NCBI GenBank assembly: GCA_020632415.1 | Contig: JACKFO010000002.1 | Span: 642,732 to 706,731, forward strand | Direction of reading: 5' to 3' | DNA from: Candidatus Nomurabacteria bacterium | GTDB lineage: Bacteria; Patescibacteriota; Patescibacteriia; UBA1558; GWA2-36-10 | DNA: 64,000 bases | Part shown: positions 1,659 to 58,126 of the stretch, one piece after another | How the letters are laid out: every line of letters begins with the position of its first letter | Position numbering within the stretch: position 1 is the stretch's first letter | Made by a program: the position numbers and the translations under genes | The notes under the pieces: model-generated | Database searches by the model: none | Told to the model about the DNA's origin: nothing | What the model saw: only the letters and a program-made list of their open reading frames with translations

Positions 1659-2693
1659 ATGAACTTAAACGACTTATTTAAAATTGCCTCACAATCAAAA
1701 GCTTCTGACTTACATTTGATTGTTGGTAAACCACCGATCTTAAGAATTGACGGTGAACTAAGAGCAATTCCAAATACCGAAGTACTAAGTAAAGCTAATG
1801 CTGAAAAAATGATCTTTAGCATTATCACTGAAAAACAACGCGATCAGTTTATTGCCGAAAGAGAGCTGGATATTTCTTATGAAATTACCGGTTACTCTCG
1901 TTATCGAGTTAATTTGCACTGGGAAAAAGATAATGTCGGCATGGTTGCTCGAGTTATTTCACAAATTATTCCTTCGATGGAAGACTTGGGCTTGCCACCA
2001 ATTGTCCATCGTTTAATCGAGCGTGAACAAGGCTTGATTTTGATCACTGGTCCAACTGGTTGTGGCAAATCCACTACTCTAGCAGCAATGATTGAAAAAA
2101 TAAACAACATTCGTTTTGCTAACATTATTACCTTAGAGGATCCGATTGAATACATCTTCAAACCAGATAAAAGTATTATCAAACAAAGACAATTAGGCAC
2201 CGACATGCTTACTTTTGGCAATGCCTTGAAACATGTCTTAAGACAAGACCCAAATGTAATCATGGTTGGTGAGATGCGCGACTTAGAAACTATCGCTGCC
2301 ACGATTACGCTTGCTGAAACTGGTCATTTAGTTCTCGCTACCTTACACACACATAATGCTGCTCAAACCATCGATCGTATCATCGACGTTTTTCCTCCAC
2401 ACCAACAAGCACAGGTCAGATTACAACTTTCAATGTCTTTAAGCGGTGTTATTTCTCAAAAACTTTTACCAAAAATTGGCGGTGGCCGAGTAGCTGCTCG
2501 TGAAATTTTGATCAATACTCCAGCGGTAGCAAATATTGTTCGTGAAAATAAAGTGCCTCAAATTAAAACTGTAATCCAAACCTCTGCCGACGTTGGCATG
2601 TTTTCAATGGATCAAAACATTCGCGAGCTTTTAGAAAATAAACTAATCGATGAGCCAACCGCTATGGCTCATACCACAACAAGCCAAAAATAA
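1659..2693 (+). CDS. pilT: type IV pilus retraction ATPase PilT
   Basis: 344 aa with Walker A GPTGCGKST; typical PilT/PilU length and motifs (PilT N-terminal region, Asp box, His box region). Confidence 0.8.
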   Translation: MNLNDLFKIASQSKASDLHLIVGKPPILRIDGELRAIPNTEVLSKANAEKMIFSIITEKQRDQFIAERELDISYEITGYSRYRVNLHWEKDNVGMVARVISQIIPSMEDLGLPPIVHRLIEREQGLILITGPTGCGKSTTLAAMIEKINNIRFANIITLEDPIEYIFKPDKSIIKQRQLGTDMLTFGNALKHVLRQDPNVIMVGEMRDLETIAATITLAETGHLVLATLHTHNAAQTIDRIIDVFPPHQQAQVRLQLSMSLSGVISQKLLPKIGGGRVAAREILINTPAVANIVRENKVPQIKTVIQTSADVGMFSMDQNIRELLENKLIDEPTAMAHTTTSQK

Positions 2694-2712: not shown

Positions 2713-3669
2713 ATGAATGGTTTTAAATTAGAGCAAATTACGCTTTTTCAAAATTTGAGCAAAAGTGAACTTAAAATTGTCTCTAATTTTTTATTAGAAA
2801 AAAACTATCAAGCTGAAGATAAAATTTTCAAAAAAGATTCTATCCGTGACAAAGTGATCATTATTAAAGATGGCTTAGTGAAATTGCAAACTGAAATTGC
2901 TGACCATCAAGAAATCATCGCCCTCTTCAAAGATGGAGACTTTTTGGGAGAAATGGCTTTTTTAGAAAAAGGCAGTCACCACCAGCATTCTTTAGAAGTT
3001 GCTAGTCCTCGCTTGAGTACTTTGGAATTTTCAGTTTATCACTGGTACAAAATCTTAAAAGAACACCCAGAAATTTCTAGAAAAATTTATCAAAATATTG
3101 CGATTAGTTTAAAAAATCGTTTGGACCATGCAAACAATAAACTAGTCACTCTTTTTGCTTCTGGCCAAATCATTGCCAAGTATGACAACATCGAAGATAT
3201 TAGTCGTCACTTGATCGAAATCATCCAAAAAGTTATTCCTTGTCAAAAAACATTATTTATTACCAGTAGCCAAGGAAATGAAAGGTTCGTTGTCCGACAT
3301 CTAAGTGGCTACAAAAATATCAAGCTGGGAGAAATTTTTAATGCCAACCAAGATCCTCTCTTAGAAGAAATAATGACTAAGGCTGAAACAAAAATATTTC
3401 AAAAAAATACTTGGCCAAAGAATTTTATCAATCTCAAATATGTTAGCAATTCTTTGATTGTCGCTCCAATAAAAATCGCTCGCAAAATAACTGGCTTTAT
3501 TATTTTGGCCGACAAGCTAAATGGTCGAGCATTTAGCATGAACAATCAAATTCTTTTAGAAGCTATTGCTACTCAAATCGCTCCGATTATCGAAGAAGAA
3601 AGATTGTTAAATTTTCAAAACTCTAGCGATGACTTAAAAAGAGTCTATATCGACCCTTTTTCTTCTTAG
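2713..3669 (+). CDS. cyclic-nucleotide-binding (CAP-like) plus GAF-like domain protein, putative regulator
   Basis: N-terminal region with FGEMAFL-type cNMP-binding motif; C-terminal half resembles a GAF domain; immediately downstream of pilT. Confidence 0.4.
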   Translation: MNGFKLEQITLFQNLSKSELKIVSNFLLEKNYQAEDKIFKKDSIRDKVIIIKDGLVKLQTEIADHQEIIALFKDGDFLGEMAFLEKGSHHQHSLEVASPRLSTLEFSVYHWYKILKEHPEISRKIYQNIAISLKNRLDHANNKLVTLFASGQIIAKYDNIEDISRHLIEIIQKVIPCQKTLFITSSQGNERFVVRHLSGYKNIKLGEIFNANQDPLLEEIMTKAETKIFQKNTWPKNFINLKYVSNSLIVAPIKIARKITGFIILADKLNGRAFSMNNQILLEAIATQIAPIIEEERLLNFQNSSDDLKRVYIDPFSS

Positions 3670-5531: not shown

Positions 5532-5882
5532 ATGTCCGAAGAGAAAATTCAGACCGAAAAAAAAGCAGAGATTGCTCCAGAAATCAAACCTGGAATGACT
5601 GTTAAGGTCCATGAAAAAATCAAAGAAAAGAACGCCAAGGGTGTTGAAAAAGAAAGAATTCAAGTCTTTGAAGGTTTAGTTATCGCCAGAAAACACGGTA
5701 AAGAAATCGGTTCTACAATCACTGTTCGTAAAGTATCAAATGGCATTGGTGTAGAAAAAATCTATCCTTTAAACTCTCCTTTGATTACTAACATTGAACC
5801 AGTTAAACAAGCAAAAGTTAGACGTGCTAAATTGGGTTTTGTTCGTACTGCTAAAAAGAAATTCAAAGAAACCAAAATCTAA
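5532..5882 (+). CDS. rplS: 50S ribosomal protein L19
   Basis: 116 aa; MTVKVHEKIKEKNAKG...VFEGLVIARKHG...TVRKVSNGIGVEKIYPLNSP is the L19 signature. Confidence 0.9.
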   Translation: MSEEKIQTEKKAEIAPEIKPGMTVKVHEKIKEKNAKGVEKERIQVFEGLVIARKHGKEIGSTITVRKVSNGIGVEKIYPLNSPLITNIEPVKQAKVRRAKLGFVRTAKKKFKETKI

Positions 5883-5923
5883 ATCATTTCTTGGCGTGTC
5901 TCTTTAAAATTTAAGTTTCACAT

Positions 5924-6012
5924 GCCGGAGTGGTGGAATTGGTAGACACGCCAGCTTGAGGGGCTGGTCCTTATTTTTGAGGGTGGAGGTTCAAATCCTC
6001 TCTTCGGCACCA
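5924..6012 (+). tRNA. tRNA-Leu (anticodon GAG), long variable arm
   Basis: acceptor gccggag/cttcggc, anticodon loop ttgaggg, long extra arm, T-loop ttcaaat, CCA. Confidence 0.75.
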
Positions 6013-6024
6013 ACTTATTATTTA

Positions 6025-6101
6025 GGGCCCATAGCTCAGTTGGCTAGAGCGCCTGCTTTGCACGCAGGAGGTCGCAGGTTCGATTCCTGTTGGGTCCACC
6101 A
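6025..6101 (+). tRNA. tRNA-Ala (anticodon TGC)
   Basis: G3:U70 Ala identity pair, anticodon loop tttgcac, T-loop ttcgatt, CCA. Confidence 0.85.
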
Positions 6102-6111
6102 CTATTTTTAA

Positions 6112-6188
6112 GGGCGCTTAGCTCAGTTGGCTAGAGCATCTCGTTTACACCGAGAGGGTCAGGGGTTCGAGTCCCTTAGCGCCCACCA
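6112..6188 (+). tRNA. tRNA-Val (anticodon TAC)
   Basis: acceptor gggcgct/agcgccc, anticodon loop tttacac, T-loop ttcgagt, CCA. Confidence 0.85.
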
Positions 6189-6303
6189 TAGAATAATCTT
6201 GTGTATAAGATTATTTTTTGTTTATTAAAAAATAAAATTATGCTTGAAAAGATAAGTAATCCATTATATAATAAGCTCGTCTTTAAATTACTCTCAAATA
6301 TTA

Positions 6304-7866
6304 TTGATGTCTAAAAAAGGATTCACCTTAATGGAATTAATTATTGTAATTGCCCTAATAGCTTTGCTTGCGGCAATTACTTTTGTCGCCATTGATCCAG
6401 CAAGAAGAATTGGCGAATCTAGAAATAGCCGAAGGTATAGCGAAGCTCTAAACATTAAAAAAGCTCTGGAGAAATATACTGTAGATAATATCACTCTGCC
6501 AAGCACCATTACCGCCTTAACAGACAACACTAACTATATGATTGCCGCAGTAGGTGACTCTGCCGGAGGCACCGTTACTTGCACAGCGCTAGGAGCTGAG
6601 ATTACTAAAGTAGATATTGCCGACGGAGTTGACCTTGTTCCTACTTATCTACCGACTATGCCAGTAGACCCAACCGAGTCTGCCCCATATACCAACGGCA
6701 CTGGTTATTACTTTAGTAAGGTCGGTTCTATTATTGTCGATATAAAACCTTGTACTGTTTATACAGTAGCGGTAGCTGAAAGTACACCGACCACAATCAC
6801 CGGTCTCTCCTTTGATGGTTCAGCAGTTGTTGTCGATGCCGGAGCTACTACATATAACCAAGTAACTGTTTTAGATAGCACTAATTTTGTTAGCGCATAT
6901 AATGATACAACGACTGGTGGTGGTAGAGCAGCTGTTGGTGTAGTCACTGGTAGCAGTATTGCTTTTGGTTCAGATTATCAATACAATGCTGGGGCAACTT
7001 TAGAAAATAGTTTAACTGCTTTGAGTAGTACTAAATTTGTTGTAGCTTACAGAGACAATGCTAATGGTAACTATGGTCAAGCAGTTGTTGGCACCGTCAG
7101 TGGCACTACTATCTCTTATGGTTCTGAGTATCCATTTAATGGCACCAATGTTTCTTATCGTCCAGCAGTTACTGCTTTGAGTAGTACTAAATTTGTTGTG
7201 GTTTACCAAGATAATGCTAGCTCTGACCTAGTTACTAAAGTTGGTAGTGTCAGTGGTAATGCTATCTCTTATGGTTCTGGAACAACAGTGCACACAGGAG
7301 GACAAAATGATGTTAGATTAGCCACTTTGGACGACAGTCATTTTGTCATCATTTTTGAGGATAGCGCGGCTGGCAATAGCGTAGCTTATGTAGGAACAGT
7401 TACTGGCACTAGCATTGCTTTTGGTTCTGAGTACACCTACAATACTGGCCTTCTTAGAGAGCCAAATATTACAGCTCTAGATGCTAATACAATTTTAATT
7501 GTCTATGAAGATTCAGCTAACAGTAGCTATGGTACAGCTATCGTAGGAACGATTAGTGGAACTACTATTTCCTTTGGTTCTGAATATGTTTATGAAAGCG
7601 AGGCAACAAGGTACCATGCGACAAGTAAAATTGATGCCAGCAATGCTGTGATCAGCTACCGAAAGAGTACTTTGGATGGTTATAGTAGGATTGCTACAAT
7701 TGACGGTACTACTATTAGTTTCTTAGACTCTGTAAATTATACTGCTAACATAGTTGCCTACAATGGCGTTGGGGTTTTAGATAGCACAAGCTTTGTTAAT
7801 GGCTATGCAGACAATACCAATAGTAACAGAGCAACTGCAATTGTCGGAACGATTGCTTGGGAATAA
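6304..7866 (+). CDS. type IV pilin-like protein with prepilin leader and about 8 tandem ~50-aa repeats
   Basis: N-terminus MSKKGFTLMELIIVIALIALLAAI is a class III (prepilin peptidase) signal; body is repeats of the form TAL-S-T-FVV-Y-D-...-G-A-VGT-SG-TI-FGSEY-Y. Confidence 0.6.
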   Translation: MMSKKGFTLMELIIVIALIALLAAITFVAIDPARRIGESRNSRRYSEALNIKKALEKYTVDNITLPSTITALTDNTNYMIAAVGDSAGGTVTCTALGAEITKVDIADGVDLVPTYLPTMPVDPTESAPYTNGTGYYFSKVGSIIVDIKPCTVYTVAVAESTPTTITGLSFDGSAVVVDAGATTYNQVTVLDSTNFVSAYNDTTTGGGRAAVGVVTGSSIAFGSDYQYNAGATLENSLTALSSTKFVVAYRDNANGNYGQAVVGTVSGTTISYGSEYPFNGTNVSYRPAVTALSSTKFVVVYQDNASSDLVTKVGSVSGNAISYGSGTTVHTGGQNDVRLATLDDSHFVIIFEDSAAGNSVAYVGTVTGTSIAFGSEYTYNTGLLREPNITALDANTILIVYEDSANSSYGTAIVGTISGTTISFGSEYVYESEATRYHATSKIDASNAVISYRKSTLDGYSRIATIDGTTISFLDSVNYTANIVAYNGVGVLDSTSFVNGYADNTNSNRATAIVGTIAWE

Positions 7867-7883
7867 AAATAAAACTTAACTTA

Positions 7884-7920
7884 AAAAACAATTTTATTTT
7901 TTTAAAATTGTTTTTTATTT
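7884..7920 (+). terminator. AT-rich hairpin plus T-run after the pilin gene
   Basis: aaaaacaatttta...taaaattgttttt inverted repeat followed by tttttatttt. Confidence 0.3.
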
Positions 7921-8059
7921 TCTAAAAAATTTATAGATTAACCTAAAAAAATATTTTTTTCAAAAAATTTTACAAAAAAAACAAAAATACTATTCTCTTT
8001 TTAAAAAAATTATGTTATAATTTCTTTGTTATAAAAAAGTTTTTTTAAAAAAATAATTT

Positions 8060-8326
8060 ATGACTTTTGGAAAATTTATTTTAGGAATTTTAATTGCCGT
8101 CGGGGGTTTCTTTGTTACTTGGAAATCAGAATGGCTCTTAAGAAACTTCGGTCGAATTCCATTTGCTGAAAAATATTTAGGTGGTGAGGGCGGCACTCGT
8201 TTAATGTATAAATTAATTGGTATCTTATTTATCATTATCGGCCTGATGTACGCTACAGATTTAACAGACAATTTAATTGCTAAAATAGTCAATCTAGTCT
8301 TCAAAACTAACATTACAGTCGAATAA
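8060..8326 (+). CDS. small membrane protein (2 TM), hypothetical
   Basis: 88 aa with two hydrophobic segments; -10-like ttataat upstream. Confidence 0.4.
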   Translation: MTFGKFILGILIAVGGFFVTWKSEWLLRNFGRIPFAEKYLGGEGGTRLMYKLIGILFIIIGLMYATDLTDNLIAKIVNLVFKTNITVE

Positions 8327-8408
8327 ACCTTTGTCCTATTGCTCAAAGCAATGAGATAAGGCGAAAATAAAAATATTATCTTAAAAAAAGAAAGGGGGTG
8401 AAAATAAA

Positions 8409-8615
8409 ATGCCAGCAAAGAAAAAAGTTGCAAAAAAACCAGTTGCTAAGAAAAAAGTAACTAAAAAGAAAGTTGCAAAAAAACCAGTTGCTAAGAAAAA
8501 AGTAACTAAAAAGAAAGTTGCAAAAAAACCAGTTGCTAAGAAAAAAGTAACTAAAAAAAGAGTCGCCAAAAAAGCTGCTCCAAAAAAAAGAAAAGCTACT
8601 CGCAAAAAGAAATAG
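8409..8615 (+). CDS. lysine-rich histone H1-like/Hc-like DNA-binding protein built from (KKVAKKPVAKKKVTK)x3 repeats
   Basis: Strong RBS aaaggggg 8 nt before the ATG; three perfect 45-nt tandem DNA repeats encode KK(V/P)AKK units. Confidence 0.55.
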   Translation: MPAKKKVAKKPVAKKKVTKKKVAKKPVAKKKVTKKKVAKKPVAKKKVTKKRVAKKAAPKKRKATRKKK

Positions 8616-8681
8616 TTTTTCGAAAATAAAAAATTCCTTTAATAGTCTTTATGAAGGAATTTTTTATTTACTCTATAATTT

Positions 8682-9947
8682 TTAAAATAAACTTTTTTGC
8701 TGATTAATCTTAGCTAACTTCTGTTCTTCTTCGGAAAAAATTTCTATCTTTCCATACTGACCATCAAAGCCAGGAATTAATTTCAATTTATTTTCTCGCA
8801 TCCTAATAATGCCTAAAGCTAAATTTTCTGGCATTATTTTTTTTAAATCTGCAAAAGAAAGATCTAATAAAACTTCAAATTCATTTTTAGCATGGCTCAA
8901 AATATCAAAAAACAAAGTCTGCACTTTTTTACTATTACGTGACATGCCAAAATAATCAGCCAATAAATCTGGCAAAGGAACAATACTTTTATAAGGAATG
9001 TGTTTACTTTTCTCTACCTCCTCTTTTTTAAGATCCGCCAAAGCAAAAACTCTACTTTCTACGCCAATAGTAAGCGGCTTTTTACATTTTGGACAAATAT
9101 TTTTATATTTTTTACTTTCTTCTGGCGAACAAGAAAAATTACAAGTTCGATGACCATCAAAATGATACATCCCTTCTTCGGGAAAAAATTCTATTGTATA
9201 CAAAAACTTCTTTTTATTTTTAGTTTTAATAATTTCTACTATTTCATCGTAGGTATTTTCTTCTAAATCCATCACGTTTGCTTCACGTCCAATGTGTGGT
9301 CCCGAATGAGCATCGGAATTTGAAACCAAAGTAATTTGATCAAGCTGAGATAATTGCCAATTCATAATCGGATCAGAAGAAAGCCCAGTTTCAATTGCTT
9401 TAATGTATGGCGTAAGATCTTCAAAACATTCTTCCAAAGAATCAAAGCCAGATTTTGAACCAAAAACCGCAAACCATGGCGTCCAAGCGTGAGCCGGAAT
9501 CATCATTGCTCTTTCGTCTGTTTCAAGCATAATTTCCAAAACCTGTTTAGCGGACATGCCTAAGATTGGTCTCCCGTCAGAAGCAAGTTTAGCTCCGCGA
9601 TCACTCAAAGCTTGGTTAAACTTTTCAGCGGCTTGTAAACTTGGCATCAAAATACAAAGATGCACCCGGCGAGTCTGATCATTTTGTCGATAAATGCAAG
9701 AAATTTCCGTGGAAATTAAAAAACGGACAGTCGACTGAACGTCTTTTAATTTGTATAAACCCGAATTACCATCTTCAATTAAATGATTTTTTAGTTCCTT
9801 AAACCAAGCTGGATGCGTGAAATCAGCGCAAGAGACAATGTCTACGCCCTTTATTTCTGACCACTTGACCATCTCTGCCAAATCAAAATATTTAGAAGTA
9901 GCTCGAGCGTATTTAGAATGAATATGTAAATCTATGATCTTTTTCAT
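8682..9947 (-). CDS. PHP-domain endonuclease Q (EndoQ)-like protein with zinc-ribbon
   Basis: MKKIIDLHIHSKYARATS...CADFTHPAWFKEL matches the EndoQ/TIGR00375 N-terminal PHP motifs; C-x2-C ... CPKC zinc ribbon present; start taken at internal MKKII (M12 of the track ORF). Confidence 0.5.
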   Translation of the reverse strand: MKKIIDLHIHSKYARATSKYFDLAEMVKWSEIKGVDIVSCADFTHPAWFKELKNHLIEDGNSGLYKLKDVQSTVRFLISTEISCIYRQNDQTRRVHLCILMPSLQAAEKFNQALSDRGAKLASDGRPILGMSAKQVLEIMLETDERAMMIPAHAWTPWFAVFGSKSGFDSLEECFEDLTPYIKAIETGLSSDPIMNWQLSQLDQITLVSNSDAHSGPHIGREANVMDLEENTYDEIVEIIKTKNKKKFLYTIEFFPEEGMYHFDGHRTCNFSCSPEESKKYKNICPKCKKPLTIGVESRVFALADLKKEEVEKSKHIPYKSIVPLPDLLADYFGMSRNSKKVQTLFFDILSHAKNEFEVLLDLSFADLKKIMPENLALGIIRMRENKLKLIPGFDGQYGKIEIFSEEEQKLAKINQQKSLF

Positions 9948-10562: not shown

Positions 10563-10688
10563 GGGTTCTGGCGATGACCTACTCTCGCAACCCTAAATGG
10601 GTTACTACCATCGGCCTTGAAGAGCTTAACTGCTGAGTTCGAAATGGGATCAGGTGTGGCCTCTCCAGTAGAACCACCAGAACTCTAT
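10563..10688 (-). rRNA. rrf: 5S rRNA
   Basis: Reverse complement reads ...CCGATGGTAGT...GAGAGTAGG..CGCCAG, the conserved 5S helices; lies directly downstream of 23S. Confidence 0.8.
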
Positions 10689-10877
10689 CGTCCTCGAAAA
10701 AATAAATTTATAAATCGAAACATCGTTTCCTAACCTAATACTATTTGATTGATCGGCGTGAATAACATCACGACACCCAATAATAATATCAAGCCAATGA
10801 AAAGTAAAACGATTTTAATCATTTAAACAATGTTTAAGAACAAAAAATTTGTATAAAAATTTCCAAAATTTTTAGTG

Positions 10878-13995
<3,118 letters not shown>

Positions 13996-14992: not shown

Positions 14993-15544
14993 TCAATCAA
15001 GTAAGCTCGTTTGGGCGACTTGTGCTGACATGTCAACGTTCGCCTTGCGCAAGATGCGTAAAGCAAAACCAGAAACCAACTCCGCACGAGAAGCACCGGT
15101 CAAAGCACAATCAAGCGCTCGACCAATGTCCTCCTTGCTGATCTTTCGATCTAACTCTGGAAACTCTTCGAGGATCCTTCTGATCACTTCGATTAACCTT
15201 TCAGCTTCTTTCTCTGCTTTGCGATAAGCGACTTGTTTCGGTTCATCGGGAATTCCCGCTAAGAACACCCGAACTTCCGCATCGCCAGCTTTGGACAAGT
15301 CAACGTCCAAAGATTGCCCGGCGACTCGGCCTCTCGGAAACTCGATGCCAGCTAGACTTCGCGCTGACGTCAAATCTCCTACGTTACCAAACGCTTGAAC
15401 AAATCCCTCCACTTGCATCATGCGATTCAATCGCGGAAGCAAGTATTCGCTCAAGCGAGTGCCTTTAAAACCAAGCCCCTTGCCTTCGCGAATCAAAGCC
15501 TCAACCTCTGCACGATGAGCTTTTAACCATTCAACGCGTGTCAT
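14993..15544 (-). CDS. 183-aa hypothetical protein (GC-rich island, no recognisable domain)
   Basis: Long ORF in a region of markedly elevated GC; protein composition is plausible (not antisense-like); no family recognised by eye. Confidence 0.5.
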   Translation of the reverse strand: MTRVEWLKAHRAEVEALIREGKGLGFKGTRLSEYLLPRLNRMMQVEGFVQAFGNVGDLTSARSLAGIEFPRGRVAGQSLDVDLSKAGDAEVRVFLAGIPDEPKQVAYRKAEKEAERLIEVIRRILEEFPELDRKISKEDIGRALDCALTGASRAELVSGFALRILRKANVDMSAQVAQTSLLD

Positions 15545-16588: not shown

Positions 16589-17359
16589 ATGGAAGAAAAA
16601 TATACAAGTGAAAATCCATATGAGAAAAAATTCATTGATAACTTGCCTCCACGCTCTGCTTTTAAAGTAGGCCTTTTTAGTGGCGTTGGCGCGATGTTCG
16701 CTGTAGGATTTTTTATCATGGCTGGATTATTTATCAATCAAGCAGTCCAAACTAGAGCTGATGATGAAAAACCAAACGTCAATGTTAATGCCAATGTTAA
16801 CGATAACGCTGCTGCAGCAAATAATATTGCCAATGTTAAAGTTGAAAAAGACGATTGGTTAAGAGGTGATAAAAAAGCTGACATTACTATTGTTGAATAC
16901 TCTGACATTGACTGCCCTTACTGCCAAAAATTTCACGAAACAATGAAACAAGTTCTTGCTGATTATAATGGCGATGTGAATTGGGTCTATCGTAACTTTC
17001 CTTTAACCCAACTACACCCAGAAGCTGCTAAAAAAGCAGAGATTGCCGAATGTGTTGGCGAAGTTGCTGGCAATGACAAGCTTTGGGACTATCTAGATTA
17101 TATGTATGCCAACAAAACCGCCCTTGCTGATATTAATACTGCTTTAGCAAAAATTAACGTTAACGCTGAAAAAGTAAATTCTTGTTTTGAAGCTGGTAAA
17201 TACACTCAAAAAGTCCAAAGCCAAATCAGCGAAGCTGTTGCTGCCGGTGGTCGTGGCACCCCTTACTCAATCATTGTTGCCGGAGACCAAAGAATGCCAA
17301 TCAACGGAGCCTTGCCTTATGAGACAATTGCTCAACAATTAGACGCTTTATTAAAATAA
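16589..17359 (+). CDS. DsbA-like thiol:disulfide oxidoreductase, membrane anchored
   Basis: CPYC active site in a thioredoxin fold; N-terminal TM; Asn/Ala-rich linker. Confidence 0.6.
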   Translation: MEEKYTSENPYEKKFIDNLPPRSAFKVGLFSGVGAMFAVGFFIMAGLFINQAVQTRADDEKPNVNVNANVNDNAAAANNIANVKVEKDDWLRGDKKADITIVEYSDIDCPYCQKFHETMKQVLADYNGDVNWVYRNFPLTQLHPEAAKKAEIAECVGEVAGNDKLWDYLDYMYANKTALADINTALAKINVNAEKVNSCFEAGKYTQKVQSQISEAVAAGGRGTPYSIIVAGDQRMPINGALPYETIAQQLDALLK

Positions 17360-17460
17360 TAATCTAATTTTTTACCCGCCGCGTCTGACGCGGCGGGTTT
17401 TCTTTTTGAGAAAATATTGCTATGATAATCTCACTGATTTAAAAAAATAATTTTTAAGAT

Positions 17461-18096
17461 ATGAAAAATAATAATTTACTTTTTTGGCTAATTTCTCTTG
17501 TTGTTTTGGCCTTGCTTGCCTGGGGCATGATTTCTCTAGCTACCAATAACCAAGGCGAAGAAACGACTCTTTTTGATGAAACACAAATTCAAGCCAATGA
17601 CCACGTTCAAGGCTCTGAAAGTGCTCAAAATATTTTGATTGAATATAGCGATTTCCAGTGCCCAGCTTGCGGAGCTTACTATCCAATGCTCAAAACCTTA
17701 AGCGAAGAATTGGCTGATCAAGTAAAATTAATCTATCGCCATTTTCCTTTAGAAAGCCTCCACCCAAATGCCAAAATTGCCGCATTAGCTTCTGAAGCAG
17801 CCGGTCAACAAGGAAAATTTTGGGAAATGTATGACAAACTGTTTGAAAATCAAACAGACTGGTCAAATGAACAAAATCCAATTGAAAAATTTACTCAATA
17901 TGCCGCAGAAATCGGTCTAGACCCTGAACAATTTAAAAATGATCTAGACAGTGAACCTGTAAAAGATAAAGTCAAACAAGACCAGGGCTTTGCTAATAGC
18001 CTCAGACTAAACAGCACACCAACATTTTTTCTTAACGGAGAAAAAATTAGATTTAATAGCTACAACCAATTAAAAAATGCAATCAAGCAAAATTAA
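17461..18096 (+). CDS. DsbA-like thiol:disulfide oxidoreductase (second paralog)
   Basis: CPAC active site; N-terminal TM; 211 aa. Confidence 0.65.
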   Translation: MKNNNLLFWLISLVVLALLAWGMISLATNNQGEETTLFDETQIQANDHVQGSESAQNILIEYSDFQCPACGAYYPMLKTLSEELADQVKLIYRHFPLESLHPNAKIAALASEAAGQQGKFWEMYDKLFENQTDWSNEQNPIEKFTQYAAEIGLDPEQFKNDLDSEPVKDKVKQDQGFANSLRLNSTPTFFLNGEKIRFNSYNQLKNAIKQN

Positions 18097-18526
18097 TTTT
18101 TCTTTACTTTTGGCATTTGCTTTAACAGCGACCGTTGGTTTTTTGGATTCCGTTTATCTAACTACTAAATATTTTGTCGGCACAATCAATTGCTCCGTTC
18201 TTTCTGGCTGTCAACAAGTTTTAGATAGTAAATATTCGGCAATCTTTAATATCCCGATTGCTTCATTGGGAGTCCTTTATTATTTATCAATAATTTTTGC
18301 AGTTTTACTTTACTTCAAGTACCAACATAAACTCACGTCTTTATATCTTAAGTTTATTCCCAGTCTAGGCTTTGTATTTACCCTTTGGTTGGTTTATCTC
18401 CAAATTTGGGTAATCAAAGCAATTTGTATTTACTGCATGCTTTCAGCAACGAGCTCAACAATTATTTTTATTTTTAGTCTATTGCTATTTAAAAATAAAA
18501 AGGAAATAACAACAGAGGTAAATTAA
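18077..18526 (+). CDS. vitamin K epoxide reductase (VKOR) family protein, DsbB functional analogue
   Basis: Multi-TM; loop Cys pair NCSVLSGC and TM4 CIYC redox motif. Confidence 0.55.
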   Translation: MQSSKINFSLLLAFALTATVGFLDSVYLTTKYFVGTINCSVLSGCQQVLDSKYSAIFNIPIASLGVLYYLSIIFAVLLYFKYQHKLTSLYLKFIPSLGFVFTLWLVYLQIWVIKAICIYCMLSATSSTIIFIFSLLLFKNKKEITTEVN

Positions 18527-18538
18527 AAAAACAAATCT

Positions 18539-19468
18539 ATGAATACTATTTACGATCTAATTATTATCGGTGGCGGCCCAGCTGGAGTTGCCGCTGGCGT
18601 TTATGCCGCTCGCAAAGAATTAAAGACACTTTTTATAACAAAAGATTTTGAAAGTCAATCAATCGTTTCTCCTAAAATAGAAAACTGGATCGGCACTGTG
18701 GCTATTTCTGGTGCTGAACTAGCGCAAAACTTACAAAAACATCTAGAGGCTTATCAAGGAGAAAATCTACAAATTATTAGTGGACAAAAAGTCTCTAATT
18801 TAGAAAAGAAAGACGACTTGTTTCAAGTCACTACTGAAAATCAAGAGACCCATCAAAGCAAAACGATTTTGATCAGCACTGGTTCACAAAGAAGAAAATT
18901 AAATGTTCCTGGGGCAGACCGCTTAGAGCACAAGGGCTTAACTTATTGCGCTACTTGTGATGGACCGCTCTATCGAAACAAAGACATAGTAGTAATCGGT
19001 GGCGGCAATGCTGGCTTTGAATCAGCAGCGCAACTTGCTGCTTATGTGAATAGTGTTACTATTTTACACCGTGGCCCAGAATTTAAAGCTGATGAAATTA
19101 CCATTAAAAAAGTATTAAACAACCCCAAAGTAAAAGCTTTGACTAATATCGAAACTCTAGAAGTCAAAGGAGAAAATACAGTTGAAGCAATCATTTATCA
19201 AAATCAAGACTCTCAAAAAACAGAACTAAAAACTCAAGGCATTTTTGTTGAGATTGGGGCGATACCAAATACTGAATTTGCCAAAAACCTCGTAGCAACT
19301 AATTCTTTCGGAGCAATCATTATTGACCCCAAAAATCAACAAAGCCAAACTTTGGGTGTCTGGGCTGCTGGTGATTGTACCGACGCTTTGTACCACCAAA
19401 ACAATATCGCCGTTGGCGATGGCGTCAAAGCCTTAGAGGATATCTATAATTTTTTACACACCAAATAA
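18539..19468 (+). CDS. trxB: thioredoxin-disulfide reductase
   Basis: GGGPAG FAD motif, CATCDGPLY redox-active disulfide, GGGNAG NADPH motif. Confidence 0.75.
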   Translation: MNTIYDLIIIGGGPAGVAAGVYAARKELKTLFITKDFESQSIVSPKIENWIGTVAISGAELAQNLQKHLEAYQGENLQIISGQKVSNLEKKDDLFQVTTENQETHQSKTILISTGSQRRKLNVPGADRLEHKGLTYCATCDGPLYRNKDIVVIGGGNAGFESAAQLAAYVNSVTILHRGPEFKADEITIKKVLNNPKVKALTNIETLEVKGENTVEAIIYQNQDSQKTELKTQGIFVEIGAIPNTEFAKNLVATNSFGAIIIDPKNQQSQTLGVWAAGDCTDALYHQNNIAVGDGVKALEDIYNFLHTK

Positions 19469-20224
19469 ATGTGGCATTTAATCATCCCTAGTTTCTTTGC
19501 CGGACTCTTAACCTTTCTTGCACCCTGCACGCTCCCTTTGGTTCCTAGTTATTTAGGATTTATTAGCGGCGTGTCTTTGACCAAAGAAAATCTAGAACAA
19601 AAAATAATCAAAAAGAAAATTCTACTCAACAGCCTACTTTATGTTTTGGGTTTTAGTTTGATTTTTATTATTTTAGGGAGCCTTTTTGCCTTGGGCGGTG
19701 GAGCCTTGATTGGCTATCGTCTAATCTTATCTAGAATTGGTGGAATTTTCATCATCATCTTTGGCCTGTTCATGCTCCATTTTTTAAAAATACCAGGATT
19801 TGGTTTTTTAAATAAAACTAAAAAAATTAACTTATTCAATAAACTGCAACCAGGCAAACCTTTGAGCTCTTTTATTTTTGGCGCTAGCTTTGCTTTTGGC
19901 TGGACGCCCTGCATCGGCCCAATCTTAGGCAGCGTTCTTTTCTTGGCCTCTACAACCGCTACTTTAGGCTCAGGAATTATTCTATTAAGCATTTTTTCTT
20001 TGGGCTTAGCCTTGCCATTTTTACTGATTGCTCTCAGTATAGAGTCTGCTTTAAAATATTTACCAAAAATAAACAAAATCTTACCCTACATCTCAACTAT
20101 TGGTGGTATATTTTTAGTCATCATTGGCGTTTTGATGCTCACTGATAGTTTTGGTTTATTTATTTCTTGGTTTTATAAAATTTTTAGCTTCTTAAACTAC
20201 GACCAACTTTTAAATTATTTATAA
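19469..20224 (+). CDS. ccdA: cytochrome c biogenesis/thiol-disulfide transporter CcdA (DsbD membrane domain)
   Basis: LAPCTLPLVPSY and WTPCIGPILGSVL, the two conserved Cys-containing motifs of CcdA. Confidence 0.7.
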   Translation: MWHLIIPSFFAGLLTFLAPCTLPLVPSYLGFISGVSLTKENLEQKIIKKKILLNSLLYVLGFSLIFIILGSLFALGGGALIGYRLILSRIGGIFIIIFGLFMLHFLKIPGFGFLNKTKKINLFNKLQPGKPLSSFIFGASFAFGWTPCIGPILGSVLFLASTTATLGSGIILLSIFSLGLALPFLLIALSIESALKYLPKINKILPYISTIGGIFLVIIGVLMLTDSFGLFISWFYKIFSFLNYDQLLNYL

Positions 20225-26382: not shown

Positions 26383-27861
<1,479 letters not shown>

Positions 27862-28177
27862 AAATAAAGTTTGCACATCTTGCTAAAAGATGTGTTTGGC
27901 TCGAGTTGTTACTCGAAATATGATTGACTTGTCCAAACTTTTAGTTGGACAATAAAATTTAAAAATTGACTTATGGTTTAACTAAAAACGGTTCACTTTT
28001 TAGTTGTCAAATATTTATTTGTCAAAAAACATTGTTTTTCTTGCTTATAGATAGCTTCTAAAGTTCAAGAAAAAACAGCAATGTCCAAAGACCTTAGACA
28101 CTTCTGTTTTTTCTCGGGTGCAACTCCCTTAATTTCTTTGTAAATCAGCTACGACTTTATTTTTTTAATGCTCCCGT

Positions 28178-39843: not shown

Positions 39844-39880
39844 CCTCTGCGTACGCGAGCACGCAGAGGGATTTTTTTTA
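39844..39880 (+). terminator. GC-rich intrinsic terminator
   Basis: ccctctgcgt/acgcagaggg 10-bp stem followed by atttttttta. Confidence 0.5.
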
Positions 39881-42664
39881 TTTACTAAACTTTTTCTTTA
39901 ACGAAAAAATAATTAACAAAATTAAACTGCCGCAAATTATAAACAATAAATTCTTTTTTATTTTTTCACTCCGCAGATCATTTTCTACCTGATAAACTTC
40001 TTCGCTAATTTCTACTTGTTTGTTTGGCTCTTTGTTTATTGCTGCTTCTACTTTTTGAGCAAACTGCAAATCATTTTTATTCAAAGGCAATAATTTAAAT
40101 CCACTACTGGTTTCAGACAAAATTCCAGCAACAATCATTTCTTGACCTTTGCTGATTTCTAAATCACTTAAATCAAAATTTGCATAAACGCGCACTTGCC
40201 AATCCTCTTCTTCTTCGCTAGCCAAATAAATATTCTTGCCACTTTTTTTGACAATAATTCCCTTGAGATGCAAAAAGTCTCCTAATAAATCTTCACTCAA
40301 ATCATCGGTAGAAATTAATTCTGGCGCTGCCAAATCCAAATGAAACTCAGTTTTTAAAAGATCTTCTTTGCTTTTTATTTTTACTCGTGGCAAAGGATCC
40401 AGTTTTGAAATTTCACCAGACACTTCCACAAGATCTCCCGCTTTTATTTCGGGCCAATCTTTTTTGCTAAAATAAATCTCCACTGGTTGATCATAATAAA
40501 TTTCCTCTTGGTCCCAATCTACTAAATATAAACTTGCGCTTTTTGGATTAGCATCATTGATTGCTAGGCCCTGCAAAATAACATTGGCTTTTATTTTTTG
40601 ATCATAAATAGCTGGCGGATTTAAAAGGCTAAAACCAGCAACGTCTTGTTTAGCTTGATTTACAGATCCTGGACTAGCTTGCTTATTGACAAACCATTCT
40701 AAATTCTCAAAATCCCAAGCGTACGATTGTCCTTCGGGAATTTTATTATAATTTACTTCCTGCCAAACTTCTTGCAATGGGTTTAATAAACGCACACTAT
40801 CTTCTGAATTATTTAAAGTAACGCCTGTTTCTGAACGAGAAAAAATCTTGAACTCACCCGGCAAAATAATTGTGCTGGTCGCAAATAAGTATGGCCGACT
40901 ACCACCATCTTGGTCATCCAAATACCAACCCAGCAAATCTATTGGTTCTGAAAAATTATTACAAACTTCAATCCATTCACCGTCATCAGAGCCGACTGGA
41001 TTTGGAATAAACTCAGAAATAATCAAGTCTCCAAGCTCAAAATTTATTACTTGGATGTTTTTTATTTCTAAATTATTCTCTGCCTCAAAAATATTTAACA
41101 ATAAACTAGCCTCGCCGCTCAAACCTTCGCTGTCGCTAACTTTTAACTTTACTAAATAATTTCCAGCTGCCGAGTATTGATGATTTTCTATTTTTTCATC
41201 ACCAGAAGTTTCGTCACCAAAGTCCCAAAAATATTCTAGCGTTCCTTCTTCGGGATCAGAAGAATCTTCTGCTGATAATTTAATTTTTTCACCAACTAAA
41301 AAATTTTCTGACAACAACTTAATTACTGCCTCCGGCGCAAGATTTGCTACAAAAATATTTTCCGTTCCAGGAGTCAATTCTGCGGTCCACAAAAAATTAT
41401 TCTGAAAAATATTTTCTCGGGCATAACTTTTGTTTTCTAAGGCTGTATCAATGTATGAAATTTGTTCCAACAAACTTCCTTCTGGATCATAAAGCTTGAC
41501 GGCATCACCTCCGGCATTATTCAAAGAAACTCCCGTAACACTTTTTTCTAAAACCAAATAAGTGTTAGCGCCAATGCTGAGATTGTCATCTTCAGAAATT
41601 GTAAATATTCGCGCTGAGTTATCTTGCAAAGCAAAACCACTCAAATCTATTCTTTGTTCTCCTTTGTTATAAAGCTCAATCCACTCACCATCATCAACTC
41701 CAGTTGGATTTGGTAAAAACTCGGAGACAATAATGTCTTGCCAATGATTTTGCGGCGGCGGATTTCCGCCGCCGTTATTACCGCCACCATTTTCTCCACC
41801 CCCACCATCTTCCTCCTCTTGATCTTCTGCTGTCACAGTCACCAAACAACTAGCATAAGCTTCTAATTCGCCATTGGAAACAGTCAAACTAACATTGTAA
41901 TTATTTGCTTCCACAAAAGTATGGGTCGCTTGCACTGTTGTTATCGTTGTACCGTCCAAAAAATCCCAAAGATAAGTAAGCGGTAAATTTTGCGGATCAA
42001 TCGATTGAGAAGCGTCAAATAAACCCTCTTCTCCAAGGAGCAAGCTTGTCGGACAAATAGCTACAGCAAGCGGCTGATCGCTCTCTTCTCCACTACCATC
42101 GTCGTGACTATTTTCTAAGCCTGGCGTGCCACCAATGACAAAACTTTCTTGCCAATTTTCTGGACTTGAGTCTTGATTTAAATTTATTTTTTCTAGACTT
42201 TTGCCAGATCCCGATCCACCCCAAGCCGAATCATAAGTAGCTTGAATTAAATAAGTCTCTCCGCCATCGAAACTTAAAGCCAGTTCTCCTGTTGTATTTG
42301 CCAAACTCATTACTGTATCAAAAACCGTGCCAGAAAATTCTGGATAGTCTTGCAAAAATTGCTCAGCATCTGCCGCGATTATAAAATATTCTCCTGGCAC
42401 AATTAAATTATCTTCACCTTGCGCTAAATTTAAAGTATGATTTGTGCCGTCAAAAAAACGCCAAGTATCAGAACCCGCGCCCGTCAAAACTTCGATCTCC
42501 TCATTGCCGCTATTAAAAATTTCAACCCACTCATGTCCAGCGTCACCACCAGATAAATCATACATGATTTCGGAAATCAACAAATCAGCTTCTGTTGCCT
42601 GCGCTATTTTGGTCGCGCTAAAAACTAGCAAGCATATGATGCTTAACAAAACCGCTTTCTTCAT
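39878..42664 (-). CDS. large secreted surface protein with lamin-tail-like (LTD) domains, PKD domain(s) and C-terminal TM anchor
   Basis: Signal peptide; repeated LISEIMYD..GHEWVEIFNSG / IISEFLPNPTGVDDGEWIELYN / IISEFIPNPVGSDDGEWIEVCN motifs (LTD); PLTYLWDFLDGTT...YNVSLTV (PKD); Gly-rich linker; C-terminal hydrophobic helix plus KKKFSK. Confidence 0.6.
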   Translation of the reverse strand: MKKAVLLSIICLLVFSATKIAQATEADLLISEIMYDLSGGDAGHEWVEIFNSGNEEIEVLTGAGSDTWRFFDGTNHTLNLAQGEDNLIVPGEYFIIAADAEQFLQDYPEFSGTVFDTVMSLANTTGELALSFDGGETYLIQATYDSAWGGSGSGKSLEKINLNQDSSPENWQESFVIGGTPGLENSHDDGSGEESDQPLAVAICPTSLLLGEEGLFDASQSIDPQNLPLTYLWDFLDGTTITTVQATHTFVEANNYNVSLTVSNGELEAYASCLVTVTAEDQEEEDGGGGENGGGNNGGGNPPPQNHWQDIIVSEFLPNPTGVDDGEWIELYNKGEQRIDLSGFALQDNSARIFTISEDDNLSIGANTYLVLEKSVTGVSLNNAGGDAVKLYDPEGSLLEQISYIDTALENKSYARENIFQNNFLWTAELTPGTENIFVANLAPEAVIKLLSENFLVGEKIKLSAEDSSDPEEGTLEYFWDFGDETSGDEKIENHQYSAAGNYLVKLKVSDSEGLSGEASLLLNIFEAENNLEIKNIQVINFELGDLIISEFIPNPVGSDDGEWIEVCNNFSEPIDLLGWYLDDQDGGSRPYLFATSTIILPGEFKIFSRSETGVTLNNSEDSVRLLNPLQEVWQEVNYNKIPEGQSYAWDFENLEWFVNKQASPGSVNQAKQDVAGFSLLNPPAIYDQKIKANVILQGLAINDANPKSASLYLVDWDQEEIYYDQPVEIYFSKKDWPEIKAGDLVEVSGEISKLDPLPRVKIKSKEDLLKTEFHLDLAAPELISTDDLSEDLLGDFLHLKGIIVKKSGKNIYLASEEEEDWQVRVYANFDLSDLEISKGQEMIVAGILSETSSGFKLLPLNKNDLQFAQKVEAAINKEPNKQVEISEEVYQVENDLRSEKIKKNLLFIICGSLILLIIFSLKKKFSK

Positions 42665-43315: not shown

Positions 43316-44071
43316 TCATCCTATATTTTTACAAACTTGATTATAAGCAATAGCCTGAGATTCACCGTGGACAACCAAAGAAATTAACGTTTCATACCAC
43401 AACATCAATTGCAACGCCTGATTATAATTCATCTCTTTTTTGCATCTCTGCAAAAAATTCATAGCAGGCATTGAATCGACGTTGTATATATCATCAAAAT
43501 GTCTAAAACATTGAACCAAATCCGACGGGGAACATATATACCGTAAAGAAAACCGACAAGCATAGCGCGTTAATGCATTACCTGGACCATGCAATAACTT
43601 ACTTACAAAAATCCTTGCCTCCGCTTTCTCAAGCGTCCTTACTAACTGTCTACGACAAATCGTCCTATTGTCTAATAAAACATACGTAGCCATATCTGCG
43701 AAACTAGCAACCTCTCCTCTGTTACAACTCGACTCAATGGGCATTCTGCCTTTAATATCTGTGCCAGAAACTAAAGATGGATTATAGCGTGGATACCACA
43801 TCGGTGAAAACAAATTTGTAATTTCATCCATTGTATGTGGAACTAGGTCAATGTCACAGCTCGTGCTAAGACATAATTTCTCCCTTAAATCGCGTAACTT
43901 TTGATAAACATCCAGTTCAACAACCCCCAATCTACTTGGTATCATAATTGCTATATCTAAATCCTCTGAATCGTGATTAAAAAACCAAGATCCATAAATT
44001 CTAGCTGCGATTACCAAATTATTCTCTGCGATAGCTTCCGCTACACAGTCAACAATCGCTTGCTTCTTCAT
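43316..44071 (-). CDS. Pol-beta-superfamily nucleotidyltransferase (kanamycin/lincosamide NTase-like architecture)
   Basis: GS...DSEDLDIAI nucleotidyltransferase motif in the N-domain, helical C-domain; aaggag RBS before internal M28 start. Confidence 0.45.
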   Translation of the reverse strand: MKKQAIVDCVAEAIAENNLVIAARIYGSWFFNHDSEDLDIAIMIPSRLGVVELDVYQKLRDLREKLCLSTSCDIDLVPHTMDEITNLFSPMWYPRYNPSLVSGTDIKGRMPIESSCNRGEVASFADMATYVLLDNRTICRRQLVRTLEKAEARIFVSKLLHGPGNALTRYACRFSLRYICSPSDLVQCFRHFDDIYNVDSMPAMNFLQRCKKEMNYNQALQLMLWYETLISLVVHGESQAIAYNQVCKNIG

Positions 44072-44187
44072 CACTCTTCTCCTTTTTTTGTTTGTAAAAA
44101 TTGTGAAAGTGCTTTTCTTCATTAACTCTCTTAAGAAAACTCCAAAGCTCAACAGGCCGAAAAACTTTGGAATTCTCCTTAAAACAA

Positions 44188-51798: not shown

Positions 51799-52003
51799 TT
51801 TAAAAAAGTAAATAAAAAATACCAGCCTAAAGCTGACTTTTGTTTAAAAATAAATTTTTGCCCATTGTGAATGGGATTTTTTGAATTCGCGACAAGGGAT
51901 CTGGATCAAGCAAACTAATCATGTCTATATGATAGCAAATTTTAAAACATTCGTCACTACTTAAAAGCGAGGATTCCGATAAGCGCCGCAACGCGTCATA
52001 GTC

Positions 52004-52078
52004 TGGTGTCCCCACCATGAGTCGAACATGGATCTAGAACTTAGGAGGTTCTTGTTCTATCCATTGAACTATGGGGAC
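52004..52078 (-). tRNA. tRNA-Arg (anticodon CCT)
   Basis: Reverse complement gtccccatagttcaatggatagaac a agaac ctcctaa gttct agat ccatg ttcgact catgg tggggac a cca folds as a canonical cloverleaf. Confidence 0.75.
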
Positions 52079-52357
52079 ACAGGATCATAACACGTTTTAA
52101 TCTGCTGGATTATGGAGTCTAATAAATTCTCCGCTGCTACTTAAAATTAAAAATGTTTTTTATTTAATATTAGATAGTATTTAGTGTCGTAAAATATTTA
52201 TATTCTCTGAATAAAAATAAAGTAAAAAATCAAAGACTTTTTTATTTTAAAAAACTTTTGTTCAAGTTTAATACAAGTCGGCTAAAAAGTCTAGATAAAT
52301 TAAGAAAAAATACTTTGACTTTTTTAAAATTTTAGCCTAAGATAAACTGGCTTATAA

Positions 52358-52804: not shown

Positions 52805-52806
52805 AA

Positions 52807-53565: not shown

Positions 53566-53576
53566 ACCTAAAAAAT

Positions 53577-53640
53577 TAAAAAATCCCCTGGGTTATTTTA
53601 TACATTTTATTTTGTAAAATAACCCAGGGGATTTTTAGTT
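53577..53640. terminator. long perfect inverted repeat, bidirectional terminator
   Basis: aaaaatcccctgggttatttt...aaaataacccaggggattttt (about 21-bp stem) between convergent genes. Confidence 0.5.
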
Positions 53641-53650
53641 TTATCTTTTT

Positions 53651-54379: not shown

Positions 54380-54427
54380 TATTTTTCGTTTACTAATTAA
54401 GTGTTTCTATTATAACTAAAAATCATT

Positions 54428-55002: not shown

Positions 55003-55030
55003 AAAAATTTTGTTTTTTTAAAAACCAAAA

Positions 55031-58087: not shown

Positions 58088-58126
58088 ACAGATTGTTTTA
58101 ATTAATAAAAATGTTATTATTAATTT

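Follow-up and report, generated by a model that had tools for sequence, protein, structure and literature searches.

A modular type IV pilin with a predicted seven-bladed β-propeller in Candidatus Nomurabacteria, and the cassette-like divergence of its propeller

A stretch of 64,000 nucleotides from the genome of a Candidatus Nomurabacteria bacterium (GenBank assembly GCA_020632415.1, contig JACKFO010000002.1, positions 642,732 to 706,731 of the forward strand), hereafter called the window and numbered from its first nucleotide, contains a gene for a large protein in which a type IV pilin is fused to a predicted β-propeller. The evidence described below supports a modular type IV pilin with a β-propeller module, one more case of a known design. 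What goes beyond the ordinary is the signature of module-specific replacement in the propeller, and the large, uncurated repeat family that it has in common with phage tail-fibre regions. We consider it fairly probable that the protein is a modular pilin adhesin, probably located at the tip of a retractile pilus, with a propeller that determines specificity and varies in the manner of a cassette.

The gene was confirmed as an uninterrupted open reading frame (ORF) on the forward strand, extending from 6304 (TTG) or 6307 (ATG) to 7866 and encoding 520 or 519 residues, which bears out the giant, 520-residue pilin-like protein described in an earlier, sequence-only reading of this DNA. The features of the gene and its product are as follows, with the basis of each assignment in brackets (AF2, AlphaFold2; pLDDT, predicted local distance difference test score; HMM, hidden Markov model; i-E, independent expectation value):

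6307–7866, forward strand: coding sequence of the modular prepilin, 519 residues plus stop (translation could alternatively begin at the in-frame TTG, 6304).
6307–6321, forward strand: class III (prepilin) leader MSKKG, with predicted cleavage after Gly5 (sequence, PF07963 and TIGR02532).
6322–6762, forward strand: pilin module, residues 6–152, α1 helix and small β-sheet head (AF2, matches to PDB sequences).
6763–6795, forward strand: linker, residues 153–163, TVAVAESTPTT (low pLDDT, low conservation, breakpoint of identity between strains).
6796–7863, forward strand: predicted seven-bladed β-propeller module, residues 164–519 (seven repeats of ~50 residues, AF2, Foldseek).
6796–6957, forward strand: repeat 1, residues 164–217 (repeat HMM, i-E 5e-09; alignment).
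6958–7110, forward strand: repeat 2, residues 218–268 (repeat HMM and alignment).
7111–7263, forward strand: repeat 3, residues 269–319 (repeat HMM and alignment).
7264–7413, forward strand: repeat 4, residues 320–369 (repeat HMM and alignment).
7414–7566, forward strand: repeat 5, residues 370–420 (repeat HMM and alignment).
7567–7713, forward strand: repeat 6, residues 421–469 (repeat HMM, i-E 7.7e-07).
7714–7863, forward strand: repeat 7, residues 470–519, ending in GTIAWE (repeat HMM, i-E 4.9e-09).

The gene is real: an identical entry exists at NCBI, and syntenic orthologues are present in five other contigs. The NCBI entry, H6761_03350 (Candidatus Nomurabacteria bacterium, 842-kb contig), encodes a protein that is 100% identical, but its start is placed at Met9 (MELII...; P0001, 511 residues), so that the leader and Phe1 are missing from the public record. 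The product is named “hypothetical protein”, and the Pfam record stored for that cluster is empty. Loss of the leader and Phe1 through the Met9 start would account for this label.

With the start at 6307, the N-terminus reads MSKKG|FTLMELIIVIALIALLAAITFVAI, where the bar marks the beginning of the mature protein, and Gly−1, Phe+1 and Glu+5 are all present. Residues 2–25 match both Pfam PF07963 N_methyl (26.1 bits; cut-off 21.2) and TIGR02532 (29.6 bits; cut-off 16.3), in agreement with the class III leader proposed from the sequence alone. The motif G-[FM..]-[TS]-L-x-E followed by a hydrophobic helix has a single occurrence across all frames of the window, and a leader of 5–16 residues ahead of G|F is kept in all orthologues. 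Gly, Ala, Ser and Thr together make up 43% of the protein, compared to 18–25% in cytoplasmic neighbors; richness in these residues has been used as a marker of exported pilins (PMC11623550).

Modeling of residues 1–165 by AF2 with 35 homologues gave a pLDDT of 81 and a predicted template modeling score (pTM) of 0.67. In the model, α1 consists of helices at residues 8–28 and 31–61, with a hydrophobic α1-N, and the head is made up of five short strands within residues 76–148; as modeled, this is the “lollipop” shape expected of a type IV pilin. Residues 2–72 match geopilin, PilE1, PilA and GspG among the PDB sequences (E 2e-06 to 0.05). When the pilin module was searched with Foldseek, pilins and pseudopilins ranked first (Thermus PilA4, gonococcal pilin, EpsG, PulG and C. 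difficile PilA1). Cys92 (6580–6582) and Cys149 (6751–6753), both located in this module, are the sole cysteines that the protein has; Cys149 is nearly invariant among the 35 homologues, and Cys92 is conserved in close relatives. The module is followed by residues 153–163, for which the pLDDT is about 55–56 in both AF2 models and the conservation is 0.30, compared to 0.65 in the pilin module. We read this segment, on the basis of the models, as a flexible linker.

The remainder of the protein is taken up by the repeats. A repeat HMM built from four central units matched residues 171–217, 218–268, 269–319, 320–369, 370–420, 421–468 and 470–516. Pairwise Smith–Waterman scores among the seven units had a median of 73, compared to 24 ± 5 (maximum 54) for a shuffled null, and 16 of the 21 unit pairs outscored every shuffle. 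The sequence-only reading had counted eight tandem repeats, a number that did not hold up to the repeat HMM and the shuffle test. The sole candidate for an eighth unit, residues 61–90, lies within the pilin module and was rejected, as it scored 1.9 bits with the HMM and at most 37 in the alignments, where the null reached 42. The C-terminal W-E/Q is retained in all six pilin-fused relatives (6/6). The nucleotide sequence shows the repeats to be old and diverged: Tandem Repeats Finder saw no period of ~150 nt in the gene, and in a self-comparison of the gene with blastn the repeats were 75–80% identical over 44–112 nt only. These two observations rule out a recent DNA duplication or an assembly artefact as the source of the array.

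AF2 modeling of the full-length protein (75-sequence alignment) gave a mean pLDDT of 85 and a pTM of 0.74. Residues ~160–519 were modeled as all-β with a pLDDT of 92–98. A Foldseek search of the full model against the PDB returned only β-propellers, with sequence identities of 7–14% throughout. The best target-normalized TM scores (TMt) were found with seven-bladed structures, namely the Photorhabdus PLL lectins (0.72–0.77), Sec12 (0.65–0.69) and G-β (0.63–0.68). Because there are seven sequence repeats and the highest TM scores are those to seven-bladed propellers, we conclude from the modeling that the repeat region is most likely a seven-bladed β-propeller. A β-propeller and a β-sandwich array had both been offered from the sequence alone, with structure prediction suggested as a way to count the blades; the model is that of a propeller and does not support the sandwich array, and the blade number of the best matches agrees with the number of repeats.

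Both modules also occur independently. The pilin module (residues 1–165) is found as stand-alone pilins of 154–183 residues, in pilins of 222–232 residues with a Cys-rich C-terminal extension (a module of ~65 residues), in pilins of 258–266 residues with a fibronectin type III (FN3) domain, and in the pilin–propeller fusions of ~516–535 residues. On another Patescibacteria contig (L007:10001–11938), three tandem genes encode proteins of 225, 183 and 230 residues with the pilin module; the 225-residue protein has the Cys-rich CGNGVVEGxEVCD module and the 183-residue one is a stand-alone pilin. This trio is not adjacent to pilus assembly genes. The protein from the window has what characterizes a modular pilin: two confidently predicted domains joined by a linker of low pLDDT, each of the modules being found independently elsewhere.

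The two modules have diverged to very different degrees. When the locus is compared to that of its syntenic orthologue, identities are 45–88% for neighboring genes and 77% for the pilin module, but no more than 31% for the propeller. Among six pilin–propeller proteins, the pilin module was the more conserved in all of the pairs (15/15), with identities of 52–97% compared to 31–61% for the propeller, and the similarity rankings of the two modules were incongruent. The sharpest contrast is seen in the closest pair, the near-identical strains L009 and L010, which have nucleotide identities of 92–99% in the pilin module and 89–100% in the downstream flank, but 54–73% across exactly the whole 1.1-kb propeller module (L009:1525–2777, in a slot syntenic with 6763–7866 of the window), with the transitions in identity at the linker and the stop codon. 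For a propeller that has diverged so deeply while its flanks are near-identical, recombination between old alleles that replaced the entire module is a better explanation than local mutation. The best reading of this pattern, at the level of sequence, is that the propeller is a putative specificity determinant that behaves as an exchangeable cassette on a conserved pilin carrier.

We considered two known sources of such variation and rejected both. For a diversity-generating retroelement, there was neither a template copy nor a reverse transcriptase in the window, and the divergence spans 1.1 kb rather than a short region. For a silent-cassette (pilS-like) source within the window, there was no second copy and no repeat-bearing fragment: blastn with a word size of 7 found no second DNA copy of any part of the gene in the window (best E 0.083, over 16–26 nt), and no other propeller repeat was found in any of its six frames.

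The propeller belongs to a large family. At E ≤ 1e-3, residues 166–519 match 4,940 cluster representatives (clustering at 50% identity), of which 1,135 also match at E ≤ 1e-30. The proteins range from 379 to 5,630 residues and include giants such as P0121 (3,054 residues) and P0128 (5,630 residues). In members of ~860 residues, two arrays of seven repeats are accompanied by a conserved motif at the C-terminus, G-Q-x-Y-[YF]-V-Q-x-D-G-T-L; P0142 combines an RCC1 repeat, seven repeats of this family and a dockerin; and in P0002 and P0129 the blades are almost perfectly repeated. P0260 is a second pilin fusion, with a head that is unrelated beyond the α1 helix and a propeller that is ~35–42% identical. 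Nevertheless, the propeller matched no family in Pfam or NCBIfam even at E ≤ 1 and none in PHROGs, and a profile of the family had no match among all PDB sequences. Pfam searches with nine diverse members returned only spurious, sub-threshold sums to Agenet or Clathrin_propel.

Some members of the family are located in phage tail-fibre regions. P0033 (858 residues; L004:1179–3755, on a 32-kb contig) has a tail-fibre PHROG and an endolysin as its neighbors, in a setting of large ORFs without annotation. A tblastn search against phage genomes identified gp49 of Lentibacter phage vB_LenP_ICBM2, which lies between a tail-fibre gene and a tail-fibre-assembly gene, in a region described by its authors as a variable tail-fibre region (PMC6775973). 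The top match in BFVD, a collection of viral structures, had an E-value of 2e-26, 33% identity and an rmsd of 2.3 Å over 365 columns, and the ICBM2 protein was also among the BFVD matches. The family is therefore used where phages keep their receptor-binding proteins, a function that is only predicted for these members. The sequence-only reading had set a match of the repeat domain to a known non-pilin family against its own proposal. Such a match was found in a weak form: most members of the family are not pilins, but the family is uncurated and extracellular, and this fits a modular pilin rather than refuting it. The repeat family merits definition as a domain family, which would correct annotations like that of the present gene, a “hypothetical protein” with a truncated start.

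The surroundings of the pilin gene include the following features:

1659–2693, forward strand: PilT-like hexameric ATPase, 344 residues (PF00437 T2SSE, 1.1e-43).
5924–6188: tRNA-Leu/Ala/Val cluster, upstream of the pilin gene.
6244–6272, forward strand: promoter-like site TTGAAA-17 nt-TATAAT (11 of 12 consensus matches, 35 nt upstream of the ATG).

A pilT gene about 4 kb upstream had been recognized from the sequence alone, and this was confirmed: the PilT-like gene lies 3.6 kb upstream of the pilin gene, and it is 87.8% identical and syntenic in L001. The promoter-like site has the best σ70-like score in 5880–8700, by consensus match only, and its position after the tRNA cluster suggests that the pilin gene forms its own transcription unit. 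The genes upstream encode cobalamin adenosyltransferase-like, DUF4430, DUF6580, PilT-like, cNMP-binding/GAF and RluD-like proteins, cytidylate kinase and L19; those downstream encode an 88-residue membrane protein, a lysine-rich protein of 68 residues and a PHP-family protein, followed by the 5S and 23S rRNA genes. The entire arrangement is syntenic in the contigs with the orthologue P0009, and an L19–pilin–86-residue protein–PHP core is syntenic in the contigs with P0021 and P0026. A contig search with two narrow patterns returned a single locus, identical to P0009.

Several of the neighboring genes deserve mention. The PilT-like gene is followed, after a gap of 19 nt, by a gene for a cyclic-nucleotide-binding and GAF protein (2713–3669), and the pair is syntenic in L001–L003; this hints that cyclic nucleotides control the retraction of the pilus. 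Immediately downstream of the pilin gene, the 88-residue protein (8060–8326, forward strand) has two predicted membrane helices and is also found 3′ of the pilin gene in L001, L006, L009 and L010. The 68-residue protein (8409–8615, forward strand) is histone-H1-like, with KKxVAKK repeats, and long antisense ORFs at 8029–8605 are likely shadows of its gene. Further downstream (16589–20224, forward strand) is an extracytoplasmic thiol–disulfide cluster in which two proteins have a DsbA-like thioredoxin fold, one ORF is thioredoxin reductase-like and one membrane protein is of the DsbD/CcdA type, as well as a small VKOR-like membrane ORF (18077–18526) recognized by eye only. The cluster would suit surface proteins with disulfide bonds, for instance the pilin with its conserved Cys pair.

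Elsewhere in the window, the rRNA genes are unlinked, with 5S and 23S at 10566–13994 and 16S at 26383–27867, all on the reverse strand; 16S is 12.4 kb from 5S/23S, and protein-coding genes and four tRNAs lie between them. The 23S match covers 3,122 nt compared to 2,925 positions in the model, which implies ~200 nt of insertions, and no intron family reached threshold. Neither the unlinked 16S and 23S genes nor the G+C content of ~35% is at odds with an origin from Candidatus Nomurabacteria. A secreted or anchored protein of 928 residues (39878–42664, reverse strand), another large protein of the surface, has three lamin-tail domains, PKD domains and a C-terminal hydrophobic segment. Three ORFs of 183–315 residues (45449–46396, forward strand; 14993–15544 and 43316–44152, reverse strand) had no Pfam match and may be foreign or lineage-specific; 45449–46396 and 14993–15544 are located in stretches where the G+C content is 0.40–0.42, compared to ~0.35 in most protein-coding parts of the window. 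The GC skew flips sign near 52 kb, beside rnpA-yidD-yidC (reverse strand), dnaA (55230–56741) and dnaN (56993–58087), the last two named by eye from their translations, and ~52000–58100 is probably the chromosomal replication origin.

The explanation that we favor is that the protein acts as an adhesin on a retractile pilus. MSKKG would be removed and Phe1 methylated by a prepilin peptidase whose gene lies beyond the window, and a PilB/PilC-type machine would insert the pilin module into a type IV filament. The protein would be a low-abundance subunit at the tip, where its propeller is free to bind; this placement is proposed because a propeller of ~38 kDa on each subunit would crowd the shaft. 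The propeller would then bind a ligand on the surface of a partner cell, most plausibly a glycan of the cell wall or envelope, and PilT-driven retraction would pull the ultrasmall cell onto its target. Exchange of propeller alleles would alter the specificity, in parallel with the phage receptor-binding modules of the same repeat family. Adhesion, the location at the tip and the glycan ligand are what we infer. An adhesin for an episymbiotic lifestyle had already been suggested by the sequence-only reading, and it gains support, at this level, from the analogous pilin PilX2 of TM7x (see below), from the occurrence of the family in phage tail-fibre regions, and from the hypervariability specific to the propeller.

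Several results weigh against this explanation. The Foldseek E-values of the pilin module are at least 0.86 and non-significant, so that the structural support for the head is weak, and the head has a pLDDT of only 45–84 in the full-length AF2 model. For the α1 helix, the support from sequence is good. The gene is also an orphan: no second pilin and no pilB, pilC, pilD or pilM, a locus that the sequence-only reading had proposed looking for, was found in the window with Pfam on 30 ORFs, a prepilin-motif scan of all frames and six-frame phmmer with PilT (other ORFs were inspected by eye only), and there was no PilB-like paralogue in any frame. The PilT-like gene was the one component of type IV filament machinery that these scans recovered. 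Its own near-consensus promoter would equally suit an abundant subunit. Finally, the lowest E-values of the propeller in Foldseek were not those of the seven-bladed structures, but of six-bladed sialidases and a pseudaminidase, the Pseudomonas pseudaminidase 2w38/3h6j (3.7e-09 to 1e-07 for this enzyme and the other sialidases). They would be consistent with a pilus-borne enzyme, whose propeller would trim partner glycans rather than simply bind them, as a sialidase- or pseudaminidase-like glycoside hydrolase or as some other catalyst, and the Y-x-D-x-x-N-x-x-G turn that we read in each repeat of the alignment loosely recalls Asp-box turns. However, sialidases are six-bladed, whereas the module has seven repeats, and their TMt is just 0.36–0.56, compared to 0.63–0.77 for seven-bladed, non-enzymatic propellers; no Pfam BNR, sialidase or other catalytic family was matched even at E ≤ 1. 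The near-perfect blades of P0002 and P0129 are more easily reconciled with a scaffold or with multivalent binding than with one asymmetric active site, and the residues conserved among the pilin-fused orthologues are framework residues only. We consider an enzyme very unlikely. The promoter, together with the fact that this is the sole pilin gene in 64 kb, would instead suit a major, abundant pilin with a propeller on each subunit of a thick, decorated filament. Giant outer domains decorate some flagellins, and the linker is flexible; a place for modular pilins within the filament body remains conceivable if the linker is flexible, as pointed out by Raynaud et al. (PMC8179133). This arrangement is very improbable on several grounds: stand-alone pilins of 154–183 residues exist beside modular ones in related genomes (L007), which is the usual layout of major plus minor pilins, and PilX2 of TM7x is dispensable for filament formation. 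Type IV pili typically have an axial rise of ~1 nm, which would make it sterically difficult for every ~16-kDa carrier to bear a globular domain of ~38 kDa.

The two other alternatives retain binding by the propeller but change its target. If the protein were a pseudopilin in a Com/T2SS-like system for secretion or competence, its propeller would bind a secreted substrate or DNA. The best likeness to a full NCBIfam family is to GspG TIGR01710 (E 1.5e-07, residues 4–69), there are weak matches to the N-termini of ComGC/GD/GE, and Patescibacteria are described as naturally competent in PMC10187176. The GspG match, however, at 31.5 bits, is far below the cut-off of 88.85 and spans only the α1 that is common to all type IV filament subunits, and TM7x pilin mutants, including pilX2, kept wild-type competence. 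Moreover, the propellers in phage tail-fibre regions and dockerin proteins point to targets on cell surfaces or polysaccharides, and hypervariability between strains is not expected for DNA binding, so that a pseudopilin appears extremely improbable. It is quite unlikely, too, that the protein is an adhesin for particles, polysaccharide or kin rather than for a host, with a variability that reflects escape from phages for which the pilus is the receptor. Phages commonly use pili as receptors, this Nomurabacteria lineage is without a known host, and the combination of the propeller with a dockerin in P0142 is typical of polysaccharide-degrading surface complexes. On the other hand, the cultivated Patescibacteria are all episymbionts, as stated in PMC11623550, and the one propeller pilin that has been tested affects host binding; in any case, this alternative differs from the favored explanation in the ligand only. 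Each of these alternatives fits fewer observations than an adhesin at the pilus tip. An extension of that explanation, doubtful as it stands, is that phages and episymbionts share a large family of receptor-binding propellers for the recognition of cell surfaces, and that the L19–tRNA–pilin slot is a cassette-exchange locus, in which recombination places whole propeller alleles on a constant pilin carrier and resets the range of partners. If so, the host range of candidate phyla radiation (CPR) episymbionts would be set and re-set like that of phages, with propeller alleles that may come from a pool shared with the receptor-binding modules of phages.

On the way in which uncultivated Patescibacteria may locate and keep partner cells, the genetic evidence so far comes from Saccharibacteria only, in which a minor pilin with a propeller contributes to host binding. 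The protein described here brings the same design to a distant class; its propeller comes from another family, its prepilin signal is of the textbook type, and it bears the signature of module-specific replacement between near-identical strains. The locus is a testable candidate for a determinant of partner specificity, since propeller alleles could be correlated with co-occurring hosts in metagenomes, and the ~38-kDa propeller is a well predicted, soluble-looking target for glycan arrays and cell-binding assays.

Among known systems, modular pilins are widespread, comprising >1,200 proteins with 264 architectures, CPR phyla included (PMC8179133), and the best described are PilB, with a vWA module, and PilC, with a lectin module, of Streptococcus sanguinis (PMC8179133, PMC9934059). 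Like these, the Nomurabacteria protein has a small pilin module in common with ordinary pilins, a short linker and a bulky, independently folding module that is proposed to be exposed at the tip; the difference lies in the module itself, which is vWA or concanavalin-like in S. sanguinis and a predicted seven-bladed propeller here. As the propeller lacks a signature, the architecture would have been invisible to the InterPro-based survey of modular pilins. A seven-bladed propeller is also found in PilY1/PilC of Pseudomonas and Neisseria, where it is associated with the tip of a type IV pilus that retracts and has been implicated in adhesion (PMC8179133, PMC11623550). PilY1, however, is a non-pilin without a class III signal or α1, and docks on a minor-pilin complex via its propeller, whereas the fusion here is covalent. 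Homology to PilY1/PilC can be set aside, since the Nomurabacteria protein is itself a pilin and no PilY1/PilC family of Pfam or NCBIfam matched it at E ≤ 1.

True homology of the repeats exists with the proteins of phage tail-fibre regions, ICBM2 gp49 and the ~860-residue double propellers of uncultured marine phages (full-length E ~1e-91 to 1e-118), although these proteins are without a pilin module, usually have two propellers and a C-terminal motif, and are annotated as hypothetical. Among solved structures, the best fold agreement is that with Photorhabdus PLL, PLL4 and PLL5, over 339–352 columns, but the identity is only 8–11% and no relationship is detectable by sequence. The highly regular blades suggest repeated binding sites. 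The fungal fucose lectins AFL/FleA are propeller lectins as well, but with six blades.

The closest functional precedent, by analogy, is PilX2 of TM7x (Nanosynbacter lyticus, Saccharibacteria), described in the only paper that we found to join Patescibacteria, a pilin and a propeller (PMC11623550). In the thin T4P-2 pilus, PilX2 serves as a minor pilin; its propeller is heptabladed and PLL-lectin-like, and deletion of PilX2 halves host binding while filaments still form (PMC11623550). Both proteins consist of a pilin and a C-terminal heptabladed propeller, and the PLL lectins are the best TM matches for the Nomurabacteria protein as well. Based on the published description of PilX2 rather than on a direct comparison of the sequences, the two can nevertheless be set apart. 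The PilX2 propeller is made up of RCC1 repeats, for which the protein described here had no match at E ≤ 1, and PilX2 is without a predicted PilD signal, while a canonical one is present here. The pilX2 gene resides in a pilin operon beside the major pilin, and the Nomurabacteria gene stands as an orphan between tRNA and rRNA genes. What further distinguishes the Nomurabacteria protein from PilX2 is the cassette-like variation of its propeller.

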